Positions 47,796 through 54,202 are shown, counted from the first letter of the stretch. The stretch is DNA of 64,000 nt from Sphingobacteriales bacterium UTBCD1 (GCA_002066995.1 MWTC01000031.1:11649-75648); one strand, 5' to 3'. Notes: generated from the letters alone by a model not told the origin. Numbers and translations: made by a program.

Positions 47796-48029
47796 ATGAA
47801 CTTTTTTTCGCACATACGGAATAAGATAAGAGAATCCAAAAAATTTACTATTATATTTATTGTTATATACAGCGTTATATTTTTTTTACTCTTAAGACTA
47901 TTTATTCCGGTATATGCTCACTCTTCAGATTTAATATTATTAATAATCACCAATCTTGTTGTAGTCTTTTATATTCGAAAAAAATTTTTAATTAAAAAAA
48001 AGGAGAAGGATCATCAACAATTGAAATAA
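47796..48029 (+). CDS. Small two-helix membrane protein, putative immunity protein (type A, copy 1)
   Basis: 77 aa: basic N-terminus MNFFSHIRNKIRESKK, two hydrophobic helices and a Lys-rich tail ending DHQQLK. Starts 30 nt after the toxin stop. Confidence 0.6.
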   Translation: MNFFSHIRNKIRESKKFTIIFIVIYSVIFFLLLRLFIPVYAHSSDLILLIITNLVVVFYIRKKFLIKKKEKDHQQLK

Positions 48030-48260
48030 AAAGACCCGGCCAGTCGGTTGATAAACGTTTAACAAAAAGGTTATGGAGGTGCTGATATTAAAGGCGCATT
48101 TGTCGGTGGTAGAATAGGTTTAGCTGCAGGGGCTCCGGGTGTATTTGCGGGAGCAATTTTGAGTAGTGCAGTTTTTTCTTCAGGGCGGGTATTATGGGAA
48201 GCCGCTAAATGCATACCTTATGTAGGAGGAATAATTAGATGGTTAGATGATTGGTTTTAG
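48030..48260 (+). other. Orphan toxin C-terminal cassette 1 (frame intact from 48063, no start codon)
   Basis: 48063-48260 translates to QKGYGGADIKGAFVGGRIGLAAGAPGVFAGAILSSAVFSSGRVLWEAAKCIPYVGGIIRWLDDWF*, collinear with the last 64 aa of the full-length gene. A TAA at 48060-48062 replaces a Lys codon (INV*QK vs INVKK). Confidence 0.75.
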
Positions 48261-48291
48261 TTTATTTCATGATTTTATTAATTTATTTGAT

Positions 48292-48522
48292 ATGAACTTT
48301 TTTTCGCACTTACGGAAGAAGATAAGGGAATCCAAAAAATTTACTATTATATTTGGTATCATATACAGCGTTATATTTTTTTTACTCTTTAGACTATTTT
48401 TTCCGGAATATGCTCACTTTTCGGATTTAATATTATTAATAATTACCGGGTTTGTCGGTGACTTTTATATCCGAAAGAAATTTTTAAATAAAAAAAAGAA
48501 TGATCATCAACAATTGAAATAA
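48292..48522 (+). CDS. Putative immunity protein (type A, copy 2)
   Basis: 76-aa paralogue of 47796-48029. I use the internal ATG at 48292, because the ORF-track start at 48247 lies inside the cassette tail. Confidence 0.6.
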   Translation: MNFFSHLRKKIRESKKFTIIFGIIYSVIFFLLFRLFFPEYAHFSDLILLIITGFVGDFYIRKKFLNKKKNDHQQLK

Positions 48523-48752
48523 AAAGACCCGGCCAGTCGGTTGATAAACGTTTAACAAAAAGGTTATGGAGGATCTGATATTAAAGGCGCAATTGCCGGT
48601 GGTAGAATAGGTTTAGCTGCAGGGGCTCCGGGTGTATTTGCGGGAACAATTTTGGTTAGTGCAGTTTTTTTTCAGGGCGGGTATTATGGAAAGCTGCAAA
48701 ATGTATTCCTTATGCAGGATCTGTGATCAGATGGTTAAGTGATTGGTTTTAA
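48523..48752 (+). other. Orphan toxin C-terminal cassette 2 (frameshifted)
   Basis: Near-identical to cassette 1 at the 5' end. There is a 1-nt deletion at the T8 run (48665-48672), which puts the VLWKAAKCIPYAGSVIRWLSDWF* tail out of frame. Confidence 0.7.
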
Positions 48753-48778
48753 TACAGAGAAATTATAATAAAATTCTT

Positions 48779-48994
48779 ATGAAATTTTTATCCAGGTTAA
48801 GAAATAAAATTTGGGAATCTGCTCCACTATTCTACATCTTTGGTTTGATAAACAGTGTTATTGTTTTTTTCCTTCTTAGGCAATTTCTTCCTGAATGGAC
48901 AGACTTTTCCGTTTTAATCATTGTCATTATTTCCGGTATAATTGGTGACTATTATATAAGAAAATGGTACATTAAAAAAAATAAAAAGGAGTAA
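48779..48994 (+). CDS. Putative immunity protein (type B, copy 1)
   Basis: 71 aa starting MKFLSRLRNKIWESAPLFY, with the same two-helix architecture. Internal ATG at 48779 used. Confidence 0.55.
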   Translation: MKFLSRLRNKIWESAPLFYIFGLINSVIVFFLLRQFLPEWTDFSVLIIVIISGIIGDYYIRKWYIKKNKKE

Positions 48995-49029
48995 TCATTG
49001 GAGCTGCACTTATGACATGGCTTATTCAT

Positions 49030-49109
49030 CAGGAGCAGTATTATGGGAAGCCGCAAAATTTATACCATACGTAGGGAATGTAGTAAGATGGTTATCTGAT
49101 TGGTTTTAA
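49030..49109 (+). other. Orphan cassette 3: tail-only remnant
   Basis: Encodes ...SSGAVLWEAAKFIPYVGNVVRWLSDWF*. It and its 3' flank match 47690-47795, offset 1345 bp. Confidence 0.7.
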
Positions 49110-49140
49110 TCTATGTCGAGATATTGAAAAATGACCTTAA

Positions 49141-49371
49141 ATGAATTTTTTTTCATACATAAATAATAGGATAATAAAATCCAAGAGATTTGCGATAATT
49201 TATAGTATTATTGTAAGTGTTATTACATTTTTTCTCGGCGCACTATTTATCCCTGATCTTAGGGATATTCCCGACCTGATAATAAGTATTCTTACCGGGC
49301 TTGTCGCCCACTTATATATTAGAAAATTTTTAACTGAAAAAAAGGAGAAGGATCATCAACAATTGAAATAA
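49141..49371 (+). CDS. Putative immunity protein (type A', divergent)
   Basis: 76 aa starting MNFFSYINNRIIKSKRF, two helices, tail EKDHQQLK. Confidence 0.55.
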   Translation: MNFFSYINNRIIKSKRFAIIYSIIVSVITFFLGALFIPDLRDIPDLIISILTGLVAHLYIRKFLTEKKEKDHQQLK

Positions 49372-49601
49372 AAAGACCCGGCCAGTCGGTTGATAAACGT
49401 TTAACAAAAAGGTTATGAAGGAGCTGATATTAAAGGCGCAATTGCCGGTGGTAGAATAGGTTTAGCTGCAGGGGCTACAGGTGTATTTGCGGGAACAATT
49501 TTGGTTAGTGCAGTTTTTTTTCAGGGCGGGTATTATGGAAAGCTGCAAAATGTATTCCTTATGCAGGGAATGTAGTAAGATGGTTATCCGATTGGTTTTA
49601 A
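49372..49601 (+). other. Orphan toxin C-terminal cassette 4 (frameshifted)
   Basis: Same 5' junction (AAAGACCCGGCCAGTCGGTTGATAAACGTTTAACAAAAAGGTTATG) and the same 1-nt deletion as cassette 2. Tail is ...AGNVVRWLSDWF*. Confidence 0.7.
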
Positions 49602-49631
49602 TTTAGAGTCAATTATTTAAAAATACCTTAA

Positions 49632-49865
49632 ATGAAGTTTTTTTCCGCTTTACGGAATAAGATAAGAAAATCCAAAAGGTTTACTATTTTATTTAGTGTT
49701 ATATACAGCGTTATATTTTTTTTACTCTTAAGACTATTTATTCCGGAATACGCTCACTCATCAGATTTAATATTATTAATAATCACCGGGATAGTCGTTG
49801 ACTTATATATTCGAAAAAAAATTTTAATTAAAAAAAAGAAGAATGATCATCAACAATTGAAATAA
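49632..49865 (+). CDS. Putative immunity protein (type A, copy 3)
   Basis: 77 aa starting MKFFSALRNKIRKSKRF, a paralogue of copies 1 and 2. Confidence 0.6.
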   Translation: MKFFSALRNKIRKSKRFTILFSVIYSVIFFLLLRLFIPEYAHSSDLILLIITGIVVDLYIRKKILIKKKKNDHQQLK

Positions 49866-50095
49866 AAAGACCCGGCCGGTCGGTTGATAAACGTTTAACA
49901 AAAAGGTTATGGAGGAGCTGATATTAAAGGCGCAATTGCCGGTGGTAGAATAGGTTTAGCTGCAGGGGCTACAGGTGTATTTGCGGGAACAATTTTGGTT
50001 AGTGCAGTTTTTATTCAGGGAGGGCATTATGGGAAGCTGCAAAATGTATTCCTTACGTAGGGTCTGTGATCAGATGGTTAAGTGATTGGTTTTAA
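49866..50095 (+). other. Orphan toxin C-terminal cassette 5 (frameshifted)
   Basis: Same junction sequence. It is 1 nt shorter than cassette 1 in GCAGTTTTTATTCAGGGAGGGCATTATGGGAA. Tail is ...VGSVIRWLSDWF*. Confidence 0.7.
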
Positions 50096-50121
50096 TACAG
50101 AGAAATTACAATAAAATTCTT

Positions 50122-50352
50122 ATGAAATTTTTATCCAGGTTAAGAAATAAAATTTGGGAATCTGCTCCACTATTCTACATCGTGGGTTTGATAAACACTG
50201 TTATTGGTTTTTTTCTCCTTACTCTATTCATTCCTGAAATGAGAAATTCTGGCTATCTCATACTATTTATAATCTGTGGATTAATCACTGACTATCTCTT
50301 AAGAAAGATGTACTATAAAAAAAAGAAGAATGATCATCAAGAATTGAAATAA
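50122..50352 (+). CDS. Putative immunity protein (type B, copy 2)
   Basis: 76 aa starting MKFLSRLRNKIWESAPLFY, with the first ~20 aa identical to the 48779 copy. Internal ATG at 50122 used. Confidence 0.55.
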   Translation: MKFLSRLRNKIWESAPLFYIVGLINTVIGFFLLTLFIPEMRNSGYLILFIICGLITDYLLRKMYYKKKKNDHQELK

Positions 50353-50395
50353 AATTCATCTGAAGAAAAGAACTACACAGCCTTCCAATTAAAAT

Positions 50396-50415
50396 TCCCG
50401 GCTTTGCGACCGGGA
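50396..50415. terminator. Hairpin between the toxin array and atpC (possible bidirectional terminator)
   Basis: TCCCGG-CTTTGCGA-CCGGGA. The flanks are A/T-rich but have no long U-run on either strand. Confidence 0.3.
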
Positions 50416-50459
50416 TCAATAAGTTAAGAGTGTTAAAAGATTTACACCTGAGTTCTTGA

Positions 50460-50720
50460 TTATTCGCCGAGCTGCTTTGCGCCTTCTACAAGTACGGTAA
50501 CCTTATTGCGCAGCACCTCAACAAAACCTCCCTGAACCTCAAACTGAGCGGTATTATTTTGTTTGTCTTTTAAAATTTTCAGGTTGCCGGCTTTCAATGC
50601 ACTTACCAATGGCGCATGTTTCTCCAGTACTTCAAAACTGCCGCTGATGCCCGGCATCTGAACGCCGTACACTTCGCCGCTGTATAATTTTTTTTCCGGG
50701 GTTAAAATTTCTAAGTTCAT
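50460..50720 (-). CDS. atpC: F0F1 ATP synthase subunit epsilon (short form)
   Basis: 86 aa. LEILTPEK..Y.GEV..V..PG..G.F.VL..HAP is the N-terminal beta-sandwich of epsilon. The helical C-terminal domain is absent. Confidence 0.85.
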   Translation of the reverse strand: MNLEILTPEKKLYSGEVYGVQMPGISGSFEVLEKHAPLVSALKAGNLKILKDKQNNTAQFEVQGGFVEVLRNKVTVLVEGAKQLGE

Positions 50721-50733
50721 AGTATTGAGTATA
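50721..50733. repeat. Left arm of the 13-bp perfect inverted repeat bracketing the four-helix-bundle gene
   Basis: AGTATTGAGTATA is the exact reverse complement of 51252-51264 (TATACTCAATACT). It abuts the atpC start codon. Confidence 0.85.
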
Positions 50734-50751
50734 AAATATTAAGCACTCATA

Positions 50752-51117
50752 TCATTCTTCGCCTTTCAAAGTATTATAAAAAGCAAGGATCATTTTATAA
50801 ATCTGCAAGGCCTCATCAATCAAAGATTCATAAATCTCTTTTGTCAGATAGTTAACTCTAAAAGCAAGCTCAATCTGAGTTTGTGCTTCATTTATCGAAC
50901 CCATTGAGATTTCAAGAAATCTTTTAAACTGTTTATTGGTACCTCTCCCTGCTCCTTCAGAAATATTACTTGGTACAGAGACCGCACAACTCCGAAGTTG
51001 AGCAGTAAGTCCATATTTTTCTTCCTTTGGAAAATTTGCGCTTACTTCATAAATCTTAACCACATAATCCATGGAACGCTGCCAGATCTTTAACTCCCTG
51101 TAATTATGCATGCCCAT
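50752..51117 (-). CDS. Four-helix-bundle protein (23S rRNA intervening-sequence protein family)
   Basis: 121 aa with the family pattern Y.EL.IWQ....V..IY.....FP.EE.YGLT.Q.RS.AVSVPSNI.EG.GR....F..FL.I..GS..E..TQ. Confidence 0.85.
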   Translation of the reverse strand: MGMHNYRELKIWQRSMDYVVKIYEVSANFPKEEKYGLTAQLRSCAVSVPSNISEGAGRGTNKQFKRFLEISMGSINEAQTQIELAFRVNYLTKEIYESLIDEALQIYKMILAFYNTLKGEE

Positions 51118-51130
51118 TGAGAGATATTTA

Positions 51131-51172
51131 GACCTTAAGTATTCAGTATTGAGACCTTAAGTATTCAGTATT
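51131..51172. repeat. Tandem direct repeat, 2 x 20 nt with a 22-bp period (GACCTTAAGTATTCAGTATT)
   Basis: 51131-51150 and 51153-51172 are identical and contain the AGTATT(C/G)AGTATT motif related to the flanking inverted repeat. Confidence 0.85.
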
Positions 51173-51251
51173 AAGATTGATGGTATTTAGATTAACTAAA
51201 GAACTTACTTTATCCTTTCAAAACATGCTGCACAATACAGCAACAAATCTA

Positions 51252-51264
51252 TATACTCAATACT
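51252..51264. repeat. Right arm of the 13-bp inverted repeat
   Basis: TATACTCAATACT, 20 nt from the atpD stop codon. Confidence 0.85.
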
Positions 51265-51284
51265 AAAATCTCTTTTTCTCTCCC

Positions 51285-52796
<1,512 letters not shown>

Positions 52797-52987
52797 TTAT
52801 TTCAGGGCGCAAAGGTAAGGGCCAAACGGTAATCTTCCAATTAGAAAATAGCCTGTTCTTTCAATGTGGAAAAGAGGTTTATTTATCCCGGGGTATTTTC
52901 TTTAATTGCACCCTTTCCATTGCTATAAAAGGAACGTAAGAACACCCTGAATTCTCATTCCAGATACTTCTTCATTACATTTGCCGG

Positions 52988-54202
52988 ATGCAACTTACCG
53001 AGGTTAACAATAAAAAACTTGCTAATGAATTTTTATTGGTAAACGTGGAAATAAACCGGAACAACCCTGCCTACATCCGTCCGCTGGACAAGGATATTAA
53101 TACCGTTTTTGATCCTGAAAAAAATAAATCTTTTCGTTTTGGTAAGGCCACCCGCTGGGTATTAAAAGATGAATCTACGGCAGGCTCTGAAGGAAAGCTG
53201 ATCGGCCGCATTGCTGCTTTTACCAATAGCAGGTATAAAAATAAAGGTGATGATATCCCCGTAGGATGTATCGGTTTTTTTGATTGCATTAATGATCAGA
53301 ACGCTGCCGACATACTTTTTGACGTAGCAAAACACTGGCTGATGCAGCAGGGAATGCAGGCAATGGATGGACCAGTCAACTTTGGTGAAAGGGACCGATG
53401 GTGGGGACTTGTAGTAAAGGGAAATGAAATCCCTCCAATGTATGGGATGAATTTCAACCCACCCTATTATCAAAAGTTGTTTGAGAACTATGGATTTAAG
53501 AAATTTTATAACCAGATCTGCTTCGCTTTAAAAGTAAATGGCAGACTGCAGGAAAAATTTTTTGAGCGGCATGCAATGTGTGCCAGGGATCCAAATTTCA
53601 GCTCCACCCATTTAAAGAAAAATCAGTTAGAAAAGTTTGTAAAAGATTTTACCATAGTTTACAACAGGGCATGGGCCGGCCACGGAGGCATGAAGCAGAT
53701 AGAAGAAAAAGTAGCTTTCAAATTGTTTAAGGCGATGAAACCGGTACTGGATGAGCGCATCAATTGGTTTGTATATTATAAAGGTGAGCCGGTGGGAGTA
53801 TGGATCAACCTGACCGACCTGAATCAATGGTTTAAATACCTGAACGGAAAGTTTGATTTCTGGCATAAACTTAAATTTCTCTGGATCAAATCAACAATAA
53901 AAAACAAAAAATTTACTGGCCTGATCTTCGGAGTAGTGCCTGAGTTCCAGGGCAAAGGTGTTGACAGTTATTTGATTGTAGAAGGTGCTAAGGTGGTGCA
54001 GGGCTTACATATTGAAAACGGTGAATACAAGAATGGAATACCCATATATGAAGATTATGAAATGCAATGGGTAGGTGAGTTCAATCCTAAAATGATCAAC
54101 ATAGCGGAATCTCTTGGAACATACCGGAGCCGGATCCTGACCACTTATCGTTATTTATTTGACAGAACCAAAGAATTCAAACCCCATCCCGTCCTGGACT
54201 AA
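52988..54202 (+). CDS. Conserved hypothetical protein, possible GNAT-fold acyltransferase
   Basis: 404-aa ORF. GVVPEFQGKGVDSYL resembles GNAT motif A (Q/R-x-x-G-x-G/A). Nothing else is assignable. Confidence 0.5.
   Translation: MQLTEVNNKKLANEFLLVNVEINRNNPAYIRPLDKDINTVFDPEKNKSFRFGKATRWVLKDESTAGSEGKLIGRIAAFTNSRYKNKGDDIPVGCIGFFDCINDQNAADILFDVAKHWLMQQGMQAMDGPVNFGERDRWWGLVVKGNEIPPMYGMNFNPPYYQKLFENYGFKKFYNQICFALKVNGRLQEKFFERHAMCARDPNFSSTHLKKNQLEKFVKDFTIVYNRAWAGHGGMKQIEEKVAFKLFKAMKPVLDERINWFVYYKGEPVGVWINLTDLNQWFKYLNGKFDFWHKLKFLWIKSTIKNKKFTGLIFGVVPEFQGKGVDSYLIVEGAKVVQGLHIENGEYKNGIPIYEDYEMQWVGEFNPKMINIAESLGTYRSRILTTYRYLFDRTKEFKPHPVLD

Follow-up and report, generated by a model that had tools for sequence, protein, structure and literature searches.

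A PF05635 four-helix-bundle gene between complementary heptamer arms at the atpD-atpC junction: a possible intervening-sequence-type cassette in an mRNA spacer

Introduction

PF05635 is the '23S rRNA-intervening sequence protein' family. To our knowledge, the S23p/PF05635 intervening sequences (IVSs) have been regarded as an oddity of rRNA genes for some 30 years, and neither the function of the protein nor the origin of the element is known. The IVS in the 23S rRNA of Coxiella burnetii comprises a PF05635 open reading frame (ORF), tandem heptamers and complementary termini in about 430 nt in all. Its stem is cleaved by RNase III, and the element has been maintained vertically after its acquisition, with signs of decay of the ORF (PMC4990558). 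GGGNATC heptamer arrays of Xanthomonas and Nostoc vary in copy number, lie preferentially between co-oriented ORFs near stop and start codons and are transcribed; arrays of this type were described as G-quadruplex-forming and without a linked protein family (PMC4692102).

The present study concerns a stretch of 64,000 nucleotides from Sphingobacteriales bacterium UTBCD1 (GCA_002066995.1, MWTC01000031.1:11649-75648), referred to as the window, in which a PF05635 gene flanked by an inverted repeat separates the ATP synthase genes atpD and atpC. An initial annotation made from this sequence alone had suggested that the two repeat arms could pair in the transcript and loop out the gene as an mRNA analogue of an rRNA IVS or, alternatively, that they are the ends of a small mobile cassette. 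The observation is confirmed by our analysis and the interpretation is partly supported. We favour, with evenly balanced confidence, an IVS-type hairpin cassette that resides in the spacer of an mRNA rather than in a helix of rRNA.

Results

In the window, atpD encoding the F1 beta subunit (51285-52784, minus strand; Pfam ATP-synt_ab, E 2e-63) ends with a TAA stop codon at 51285-51287 and is the upstream host cistron. The downstream host cistron is atpC (50460-50720, minus strand; Pfam ATP-synt_DE_N, E 4e-24), which codes for a short epsilon subunit of 86 aa. According to the ORF list, the gap of 564 bp between both genes is occupied by one ORF of 121 aa on the same strand (50752-51117), in agreement with the initial annotation. 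The deduced protein matched PF05635 with an E-value of 5.2e-39 and 133.2 bits (cut-off 33.8), residues 7-110 being aligned to positions 1-104 of the 106 positions of the profile, and TIGR02436 'four helix bundle protein' with 126.6 bits (cut-off 24). Sequence relatives of this four-helix-bundle (4HB) protein in the PDB are 2GSC (E 3.6e-24) and 2RLD, each entry containing five chains. Comparison of the protein with the PADLOC anti-phage defence models returned 0 families at E <= 0.01. An Rfam scan of positions 49500-53500 revealed no rRNA or other relevant match, the sole match being a sub-threshold sRNA model after atpC.

The 4HB gene is bracketed by a perfect inverted repeat of 14 nt (50720-50733 and 51252-51265), one nucleotide more than originally claimed. 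In sense orientation on the minus strand, the 5' arm at 51252-51265 reads TAGTATTGAGTATA and contains two AGTAYTN heptamers, while the 3' arm at 50720-50733 reads TATACTCAATACTA, contains two NARTACT heptamers and ends with the 14th base of the repeat, which is the A of the atpC ATG. The initial annotation had asked whether the 13-mer it described recurs in the genome. It was found at just these two sites in 3,757,364 bp and is thus not abundant. Perfect bracketing repeats of at least 13 nt were detected at 5 of the 14 PF05635 paralogs of the genome and at 5 of 1182 control genes. Because the 13-mer is unique in the genome and bracketing is enriched at PF05635 paralogs, a chance origin of the inverted repeat is excluded. 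Each of the paralogs has its own short repeat unit, and the arms differ from paralog to paralog.

A related motif had been reported from a two-copy tandem repeat upstream of the gene, and this repeat is indeed present. A repeat search located two 22-nt copies at 51125-51168 (minus strand), which harbor four heptamers of the downstream type in sense orientation (AATACTG AATACTT ... GTCT); the motif AGTATTCAGTATT lies in this region at 51138-51150 and 51160-51172. Elsewhere in the genome the unit of the atp cassette forms just one array, a solo array of eight NARTACT heptamers (CAATACT GAATACT x4) at C30:103999-104054 between convergent genes, and neither a complementary partner nor a 4HB gene was found nearby.

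Homologous loci were collected by a scan of one genome per species, which yielded about 45 loci of the window's type (type A), and from an even sample of 251 genomes of the family. All homologs with at least 58% identity were located between atpD and atpC (about 45 scan loci and all 11 fetched from the 251-genome sample). The ORF at each of these loci is flanked by AGTAYTN arrays upstream and by the complement NARTACT downstream. The inner edge of the arrays often ends with ...AGAC / GTCT..., and their copy number ranges from two units up to arrays of about 500 nt. Including 23 loci of a second type (type B, see below), about 70 Chitinophagaceae loci carry heptamer arrays on both sides at this junction. 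The arms of the window ('AGTATTG AGTATAT' / 'TATACTC AATACT') are two-unit remnants of heptamer arrays. Judged by the orthologs, the 14-bp repeat is the eroded remnant of complementary arrays, its 5' arm deriving from the G-rich upstream array. At three other atpD-atpC loci (L061, L062 and L065) the arrays are expanded to as much as about 500 nt of 14-21-nt super-units, and several nested hairpins flank the ORF on both sides.

Together, the arms reach from the stop codon of atpD to the start codon of atpC. The paired region starts at a median of 2 nt from the first base of the stop codon and ends at a median of -1 nt from the atpC ATG; in the main genomic contexts, the median position of its end relative to the ATG downstream is -1 to +3 nt. 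In many filled loci, the first three letters of the first heptamer are a TAG that serves as stop codon of atpD, and TAG stops were counted in 27 of 58 filled loci versus 2 of 25 empty ones (p 8e-4, kinship ignored). The 5' arm contains more G than C in 140 of 146 related cassettes and in all 16 of 16 context classes, and the 3' arm displays the reverse.

At the atpD-atpC junction the cassette genes of 69 of 69 loci are co-oriented with atpD and atpC, and in almost every context class a gene of the same orientation follows within about 100 nt. The -7 box of Bacteroidota (TAnnTTTG) was present upstream of the ORF at just 4 of 39 loci and at inconsistent positions. A candidate promoter of the 4HB gene itself, with the box TAGATTTG at 51244-51251, was rejected: although the box resembles the -7 box of Bacteroidota, it is altered by mutation in the nearest relative, and 35 of 39 orthologs lack it. 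A scan for sigma-70 consensus sequences is uninformative for this phylum. We infer from the arrangement of the genes that the 4HB gene is co-transcribed with atpDC.

Pairing of the arms was calculated for 37 junction loci (36 of type A and one of type B); all stem and ensemble values given here are thermodynamic predictions only. Duplex energies of the flanks were mostly between -20 and -60 kcal/mol, compared with mostly -7 to -30 kcal/mol for shuffled flanks. Arms paired better with their own partner (-25.3 kcal/mol) than with the partner from another locus (-22.3 kcal/mol; 0 of 2000 permutations as low), and this preference was clearest at two loci with deviant units (L074 and L082). In orthologs with the simple layout arm-ORF-arm and spacers of 436-523 nt, 17-36 long-range pairs are expected to close over the ORF. 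About half of the type A loci share the layout of the window, which consists of a 5' array, an internal array of the 3' type, the ORF and the 3' array. The predicted number of long-range pairs varies among these loci, from 0.2 at L053 to 32 at L046. In the window, the 5' arm is predicted to pair with the internal tandem repeat (probability 0.84-0.99), and the resulting local hairpin of 5' arm and internal NARTACT repeats upstream of the ORF (51119-51282, minus strand; minimum free energy -41 kcal/mol) also appears in the fold of a 601-nt transcript. This hairpin is the dominant fold predicted for this genome. Its loop includes a small hairpin with a T-rich tail (51226-51242, minus strand) that looked weakly terminator-like in a consensus scan; three such sites were found versus 2.2 expected, so that this one is not above chance.

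Comparison of coding sequences revealed a median ratio of non-synonymous to synonymous substitution rates (dN/dS) of 0.09 for the 4HB gene, 0.08 for atpC and 0.04 for atpD, which shows purifying selection on the 4HB protein. The protein has diverged in step with the genes on either side (Mantel rho 0.53; none of 999 permutations reached this value). The 4HB protein of the nearest relative (genome G003) differs from that of the window at 2 of 121 residues, with zero synonymous changes, and the ORF of the window is intact. Both arms are identical in G003 and the window although neighbouring spacer bases differ.

Only 12 of the 251 family genomes carry the cassette, several of them as a pseudogene. 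Within the window's own genus, the atpD-atpC junction is filled in four genomes and empty in four. Two kinds of empty sites were observed, a bare spacer of 7-40 nt and a gene-less low-complexity hairpin, the latter built of other units (TGTGCAAA, ATGTGAAA, AAGTCAT and others). When filled and empty loci were aligned, homology stopped exactly at the atpD stop codon and resumed at the atpC ATG. On a host tree based on 373 conserved columns, filled loci cluster and empty ones are interspersed. The junction exists in four states: type A, type B, gene-less hairpin or bare 7-40-nt spacer. The comparison of the spacer among relatives, which the initial annotation had recommended, revealed related and not unrelated flanks, with filled, empty and swapped junctions. 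Decaying copies that are frameshifted or contain stop codons have kept their arms at L067, L079 and L098 as well as at G203:C1:2088110, G083:C2:5069 and G091:C6:15668; all of these represent cassettes in the course of decay.

The type B cassette was found at atpD-atpC of 23 other Chitinophagaceae loci. Its protein is about 45% identical to that of the window, and its arms are composed of GTAGCAN / CTTGCTAC. Loci of types A and B are mixed across the host tree, where three sister pairs of one A and one B locus are well supported. The clearest case is provided by L066 (type A) and L138 (type B): atpD is 95% identical between them, the last 100 nt of atpD 99% and the first 100 nt of atpC 97%, and despite these near-identical flanks no detectable similarity was found between the two cassettes. 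Flank identity does not decay toward the junction and the boundaries are sharp. Given the intermixed types and the near-identical flanks around unlike cassettes, whole stop-to-start modules have been exchanged between close relatives, and for recent history a gradual in-situ divergence of A into B was rejected on the same grounds. A comparison of the window with locus L043 (genome G001) agrees with such exchange. The 4HB gene has a synonymous divergence of 0.27, compared with 1.36 for atpD and 1.22 for atpC, and identity amounts to 94-95% over the central 200 nt of its ORF versus 79-88% in the flanks. This pattern is suggestive of a tract of recent recombination within the cassette or of nucleotide-level constraint.

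The unconstrained protein tree separates types A and B. In the approximately unbiased (AU) test, a single clade of all atp-junction proteins was not rejected; the constrained tree was 20 log-likelihood units better (p 0.72). Two independent colonisations by types A and B are therefore not claimed, and one ancient colonisation of the junction is possible according to the trees. Copies of the type A or type B lineage outside atpD-atpC were not found in the species scan and the 251-genome sample, and recent transposition was rejected for this reason.

IS200-like Y1 transposase genes (PF01797) are encoded elsewhere in the genome, one clearly recognizable (C10:83545-84006, E 4e-26) and one just below the cut-off (C7:219716-220267, E 3e-4). 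Each gene lies between perfect, GC-rich hairpin repeats, 27 nt long at C7 and 16 nt long at C10, and the two arrangements look like pairs of repetitive extragenic palindromes and REP-associated tyrosine transposases (REP/RAYT).

The exchange of modules raises the question of a DNA-level mobile element, the alternative of the initial annotation. The arrays would then be foldback termini read as hairpins or cruciforms by a recombinase or transposase acting in trans, and the 4HB protein would be cargo or an accessory. REP/RAYT, the ends of IS200/IS605 elements and integron attC sites are models of hairpin DNA for such reading. Modules have been gained, lost and swapped: the swaps are sharp-edged and took place between genomes with 95-99% identical flanks whose identity is undecayed toward the junction, and the distribution is patchy, pseudogenes included. 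Antisense complementarity is as good as sense complementarity (see Discussion), and the two Y1 transposase genes with their REP-like hairpins indicate that hairpin-based mobility does operate in this genome. This has to be set against a cassette lineage without any copy outside the atp junction and against AGTAYTN arrays that, except for the solo array, occur nowhere else in the genome. Neither the locus nor the comparison of filled and empty sites shows a target-site duplication, and no enzyme is linked to the cassette. Moreover, paralogous cassettes of one genome each have different arms, and the fixed G/C polarity and the co-orientation with the operon are unexpected for a DNA palindrome. 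We therefore rate this alternative as distinctly improbable and retain the IVS-type cassette as the preferred explanation.

More distant relatives of the cassette are located at other conserved operon junctions, each across many genera, namely upstream of thiolase, acyl-CoA dehydrogenase (ACAD), paaB, atpH and trpD. When genomic context was mapped on the protein tree, 13 changes were counted versus 58 expected with shuffled labels. Homologs from Flavobacteriia, Cytophagia and Sphingobacteriia that are 46-57% identical (L080-L120 and L157-L211) were assigned to the junctions upstream of thiolase (41 loci), acyl-CoA dehydrogenase (23), paaB (7) and trpD (2). Arm units at these four junctions include GAGATNT, GTATTGC, CAAAGTN, TAGTGAG and others, and the 3' array ends at the downstream ATG there as well. 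Relatives of the type B protein with 58-59% identity reside directly upstream of atpH (OSCP, PF00213) at L155, L156 and L158. Their arms are of the GTATTAG/GTATTAA type and the gene upstream is presumably atpF, so that members of this protein clade are present at another junction of ATP-synthase genes in other Bacteroidota.

The recurrent contact between the 3' arm and a start codon, and the gene-less hairpins at the atp junction, could also be explained by a regulatory hairpin of the host. Such a hairpin would set the ratio of beta to epsilon subunit by stabilising the atpD mRNA or by occluding the atpC start, and the 4HB gene would be a passenger in its loop. Consistent with this, most gene-less family members keep a low-complexity hairpin abutting the atpC ATG, the 3' arm extends up to the ATG in each of the main contexts, and the 5' arm of the window is predicted to form its local hairpin directly after atpD. 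Non-family relatives and some members (L020, L021 and L023-L025), however, have spacers of 7-40 nt without a hairpin, which implies that the operon needs none. In addition, the design of gene plus arms recurs at unrelated junctions such as those of thiolase, acyl-CoA dehydrogenase, paaB and atpH, the arms follow the type of cassette and not the host, and the gene itself is under purifying selection. A regulatory hairpin with a passenger gene is thus considered improbable, and the account of an IVS-type cassette is pursued below.

Some further features of the window and the genome were recorded. A terminator-like hairpin with a T-rich tail follows atpC (50396-50415, minus strand; consensus scan only) and is likely the end of the atpD-4HB-atpC transcript. 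On the plus strand, six tandem paralogous small ORFs of 76-91 aa (47796-50352) are convergent to atpC. The encoded proteins combine an MNFFSxxRNKIRESKKFTIIF-like N-terminus with a single hydrophobic stretch and a basic tail, which ends with ...KDHQQLK in four of the six and with KNDHQELK in a fifth. Two of these ORFs (48743-48994 and 50086-50352) have a common odd TTG-start leader, MVLIQRNYNKILMKFLSRLRNKIWES. At C3:73619-81853 there are many arrays of the 8-mer CACAGATG in both orientations, and one pair of them brackets a gene for a 125-aa PD-(D/E)XK protein (C3:81428-81805; PF13366, E 1.3e-36). With this gene, the genome has a second small family, unrelated to PF05635, that is enclosed by inverted arrays of short repeats.

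Discussion

We consider it quite probable that the atp-junction element is an IVS-type cassette by architecture and ancestry. That it works through RNA pairing, with RNase III or with translational coupling, is possible, with somewhat more doubt than belief. According to this model, arms of (AGTAYTN)n that follow the stop codon of atpD and of (NARTACT)n that precede the start codon of atpC would form the cassette together with the PF05635 gene. Having no promoter of its own, it would be transcribed together with atpD and atpC. The G-rich 5' array would pair with the C-rich 3' array in the transcript, the gene of about 360 nt being looped out, and such pairing would close the stem right at the stop codon of atpD and the start codon of atpC. 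By analogy to the Coxiella IVS, the stem might be cut by RNase III, for which the genome contains an rnc gene (C7:107654-108013). Alternatively, the stem might re-create the proximity of stop and start codon seen in relatives with bare 7-40-nt spacers and thereby allow coupled translation of atpC. Either way the insert would do little harm to atpC expression. Module swaps would probably proceed by homologous recombination through the conserved atpD/atpC flanks. The comparative data show a module that is heritable at a single junction and that was repeatedly lost, decayed to a pseudogene or gene-less hairpin, or replaced by type B.

The initial notion of an mRNA analogue of an rRNA IVS is thus supported by the Coxiella-like layout, by about 70 loci with such arms and by the long-range pairs predicted for simple orthologs. 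It fares worse in the window, and several points weigh against it. The distal stem between the two named arms has an ensemble probability of 0.008 in the 601-nt transcript, and the fold of all 601 nt scores no better than those of shuffled sequences (z -0.67). The arms rank 36th of 39 loci in pairing strength. The distal stem is disfavoured because the internal tandem repeat competes with the distal arm for the 5' arm. Sense and antisense stems do not differ in quality (G-U pairs 133/1443 versus 136/1458; Wilcoxon p 0.14), and this symmetry means that complementarity could be maintained at the DNA level. The polarity of G and C may be inherited with the ORF rather than selected, and since the ancestral spacer is just 7-40 nt long, the arms abut stop and start codons partly by necessity. 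The frequency of TAG stops takes no account of kinship, and the host tree is built on 373 conserved columns. Finally, co-transcription, RNA pairing and RNase III cleavage are all deduced from sequence.

With its short arms and a 5' arm predicted to fold locally, the copy in the window is probably a rearranged or decaying version, and it is a weak example of the phenomenon. Taken further, the low stem probability, together with arms among the weakest of the loci compared, could mean that the cassette is a neutral relic in which the 14-bp repeat has ceased to pair and the gene is simply transcribed along with the operon; pseudogenes and gene-less sites are common in relatives. Such a relic would hardly be expected to have an intact ORF that differs at two residues and no synonymous position from G003, a dN/dS of 0.09 in its lineage, and 14 bp that are perfect on both sides and unchanged in G003 while nearby spacer bases differ. 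We regard this as very improbable and still prefer an IVS-type cassette.

A wider reading, which as a joint claim is somewhat unlikely, would make PF05635 hairpin cassettes a class of intercistronic modules that keep faithfully to their sites, each lineage being bound to one junction: atpD-atpC in the case described here, and atpF-atpH, HADH-thiolase, thiolase-ACAD, paaA-paaB and the region upstream of trpD in its relatives. Without a transposase, recombination through conserved flanking genes would drive a homing-like cycle of gain, decay, loss and replacement. The heptamer arms would act as insulators in the operon mRNA, by an RNase III cut or by stop-start coupling, rendering the insert nearly harmless, and the protein would bind its own arrays as a pentamer. 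If this were true, the rRNA IVSs would be a special case of the class that landed in rRNA by chance.

The locus presents a module of gene plus heptamer arms that is stable inside an essential protein-coding operon and fitted between a stop and a start codon. As the cultured strains Niabella aurantiaca DSM 17617 (locus L057) and N. ginsengisoli GR10-1 (locus L055) carry the cassette, the role of the protein and the role of the arms in RNA processing or DNA recombination become questions for the bench. The cassettes may provide a genetic context for the unexplained heptamer arrays of bacterial intergenic regions. For genome annotation, the finding means that a long atpD-atpC spacer in Chitinophagaceae is a cassette rather than an assembly error. 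A published description of PF05635 cassettes at operon junctions was not found in the literature searched.

Among mobile elements, transposons and miniature inverted-repeat transposable elements share the inverted repeats with the cassette; unlike them, it has no visible flanking direct repeat and no dispersed copies. REP/RAYT systems (REPIN) also consist of a small gene bracketed by inverted hairpin-forming repeats and include gene-less hairpins. In contrast to them, the gene of the cassette belongs to PF05635 and not to the Y1 transposases, and its heptamer arrays are cassette-specific, the unit not being dispersed in the genome. The Avd protein of diversity-generating retroelements (DGRs) belongs to the four-helix-bundle superfamily as well; 2GSC and 2RLD have five chains per entry, and weak matches to the Avd models PF22296 (bAvd) and NF033474 were obtained. 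At 26 versus 40 bits and 28.8 versus 80 bits, respectively, they are far below the cut-offs. The 121-aa ORF is the sole ORF of at least 40 aa between atpD and atpC, and a reverse transcriptase or template and variable repeats of a DGR were not searched for in the wider window. The GGGNATC-type arrays resemble ours in position; the arrays described here differ by forming complementary pairs around a PF05635 gene and by being A/T-rich.

Homing elements, such as homing-endonuclease genes, inteins and group I introns, display the same strict site fidelity, patchy distribution and cycle of intact, pseudogene and empty states, with sharp boundaries and exchange between related genomes. The 4HB protein differs from them in that neither nuclease nor splicing activity is known or predicted for it, and its spread may need nothing beyond homologous recombination through conserved flanking genes.

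The cassette differs from an rRNA IVS in lying between two mRNA cistrons and not in helix 45, 25 or 9 of 23S rRNA, and in a stem base that coincides with a stop and a start codon. Its ORF is under purifying selection, whereas that of Coxiella was reported to be decaying and not expressed, and the distal stem of the window is predicted not to form. Because a location in rRNA is the defining feature of an IVS, and because excision is suggested here by analogy, we do not file the cassette as an IVS. It nevertheless shares with the ORF-bearing 23S rRNA IVSs of Coxiella (S23p) and Leptospira the PF05635 protein, heptamers of variable copy number beside the ORF and complementary termini. Simple orthologs such as L014 and L016 are similar in size to the Coxiella IVS (about 430-445 nt), and the cassette, too, seems to have been maintained vertically after acquisition, some of its copies likewise having a decaying ORF. 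By this analogy, the ORF-bearing 23S rRNA IVS is the closest known system.

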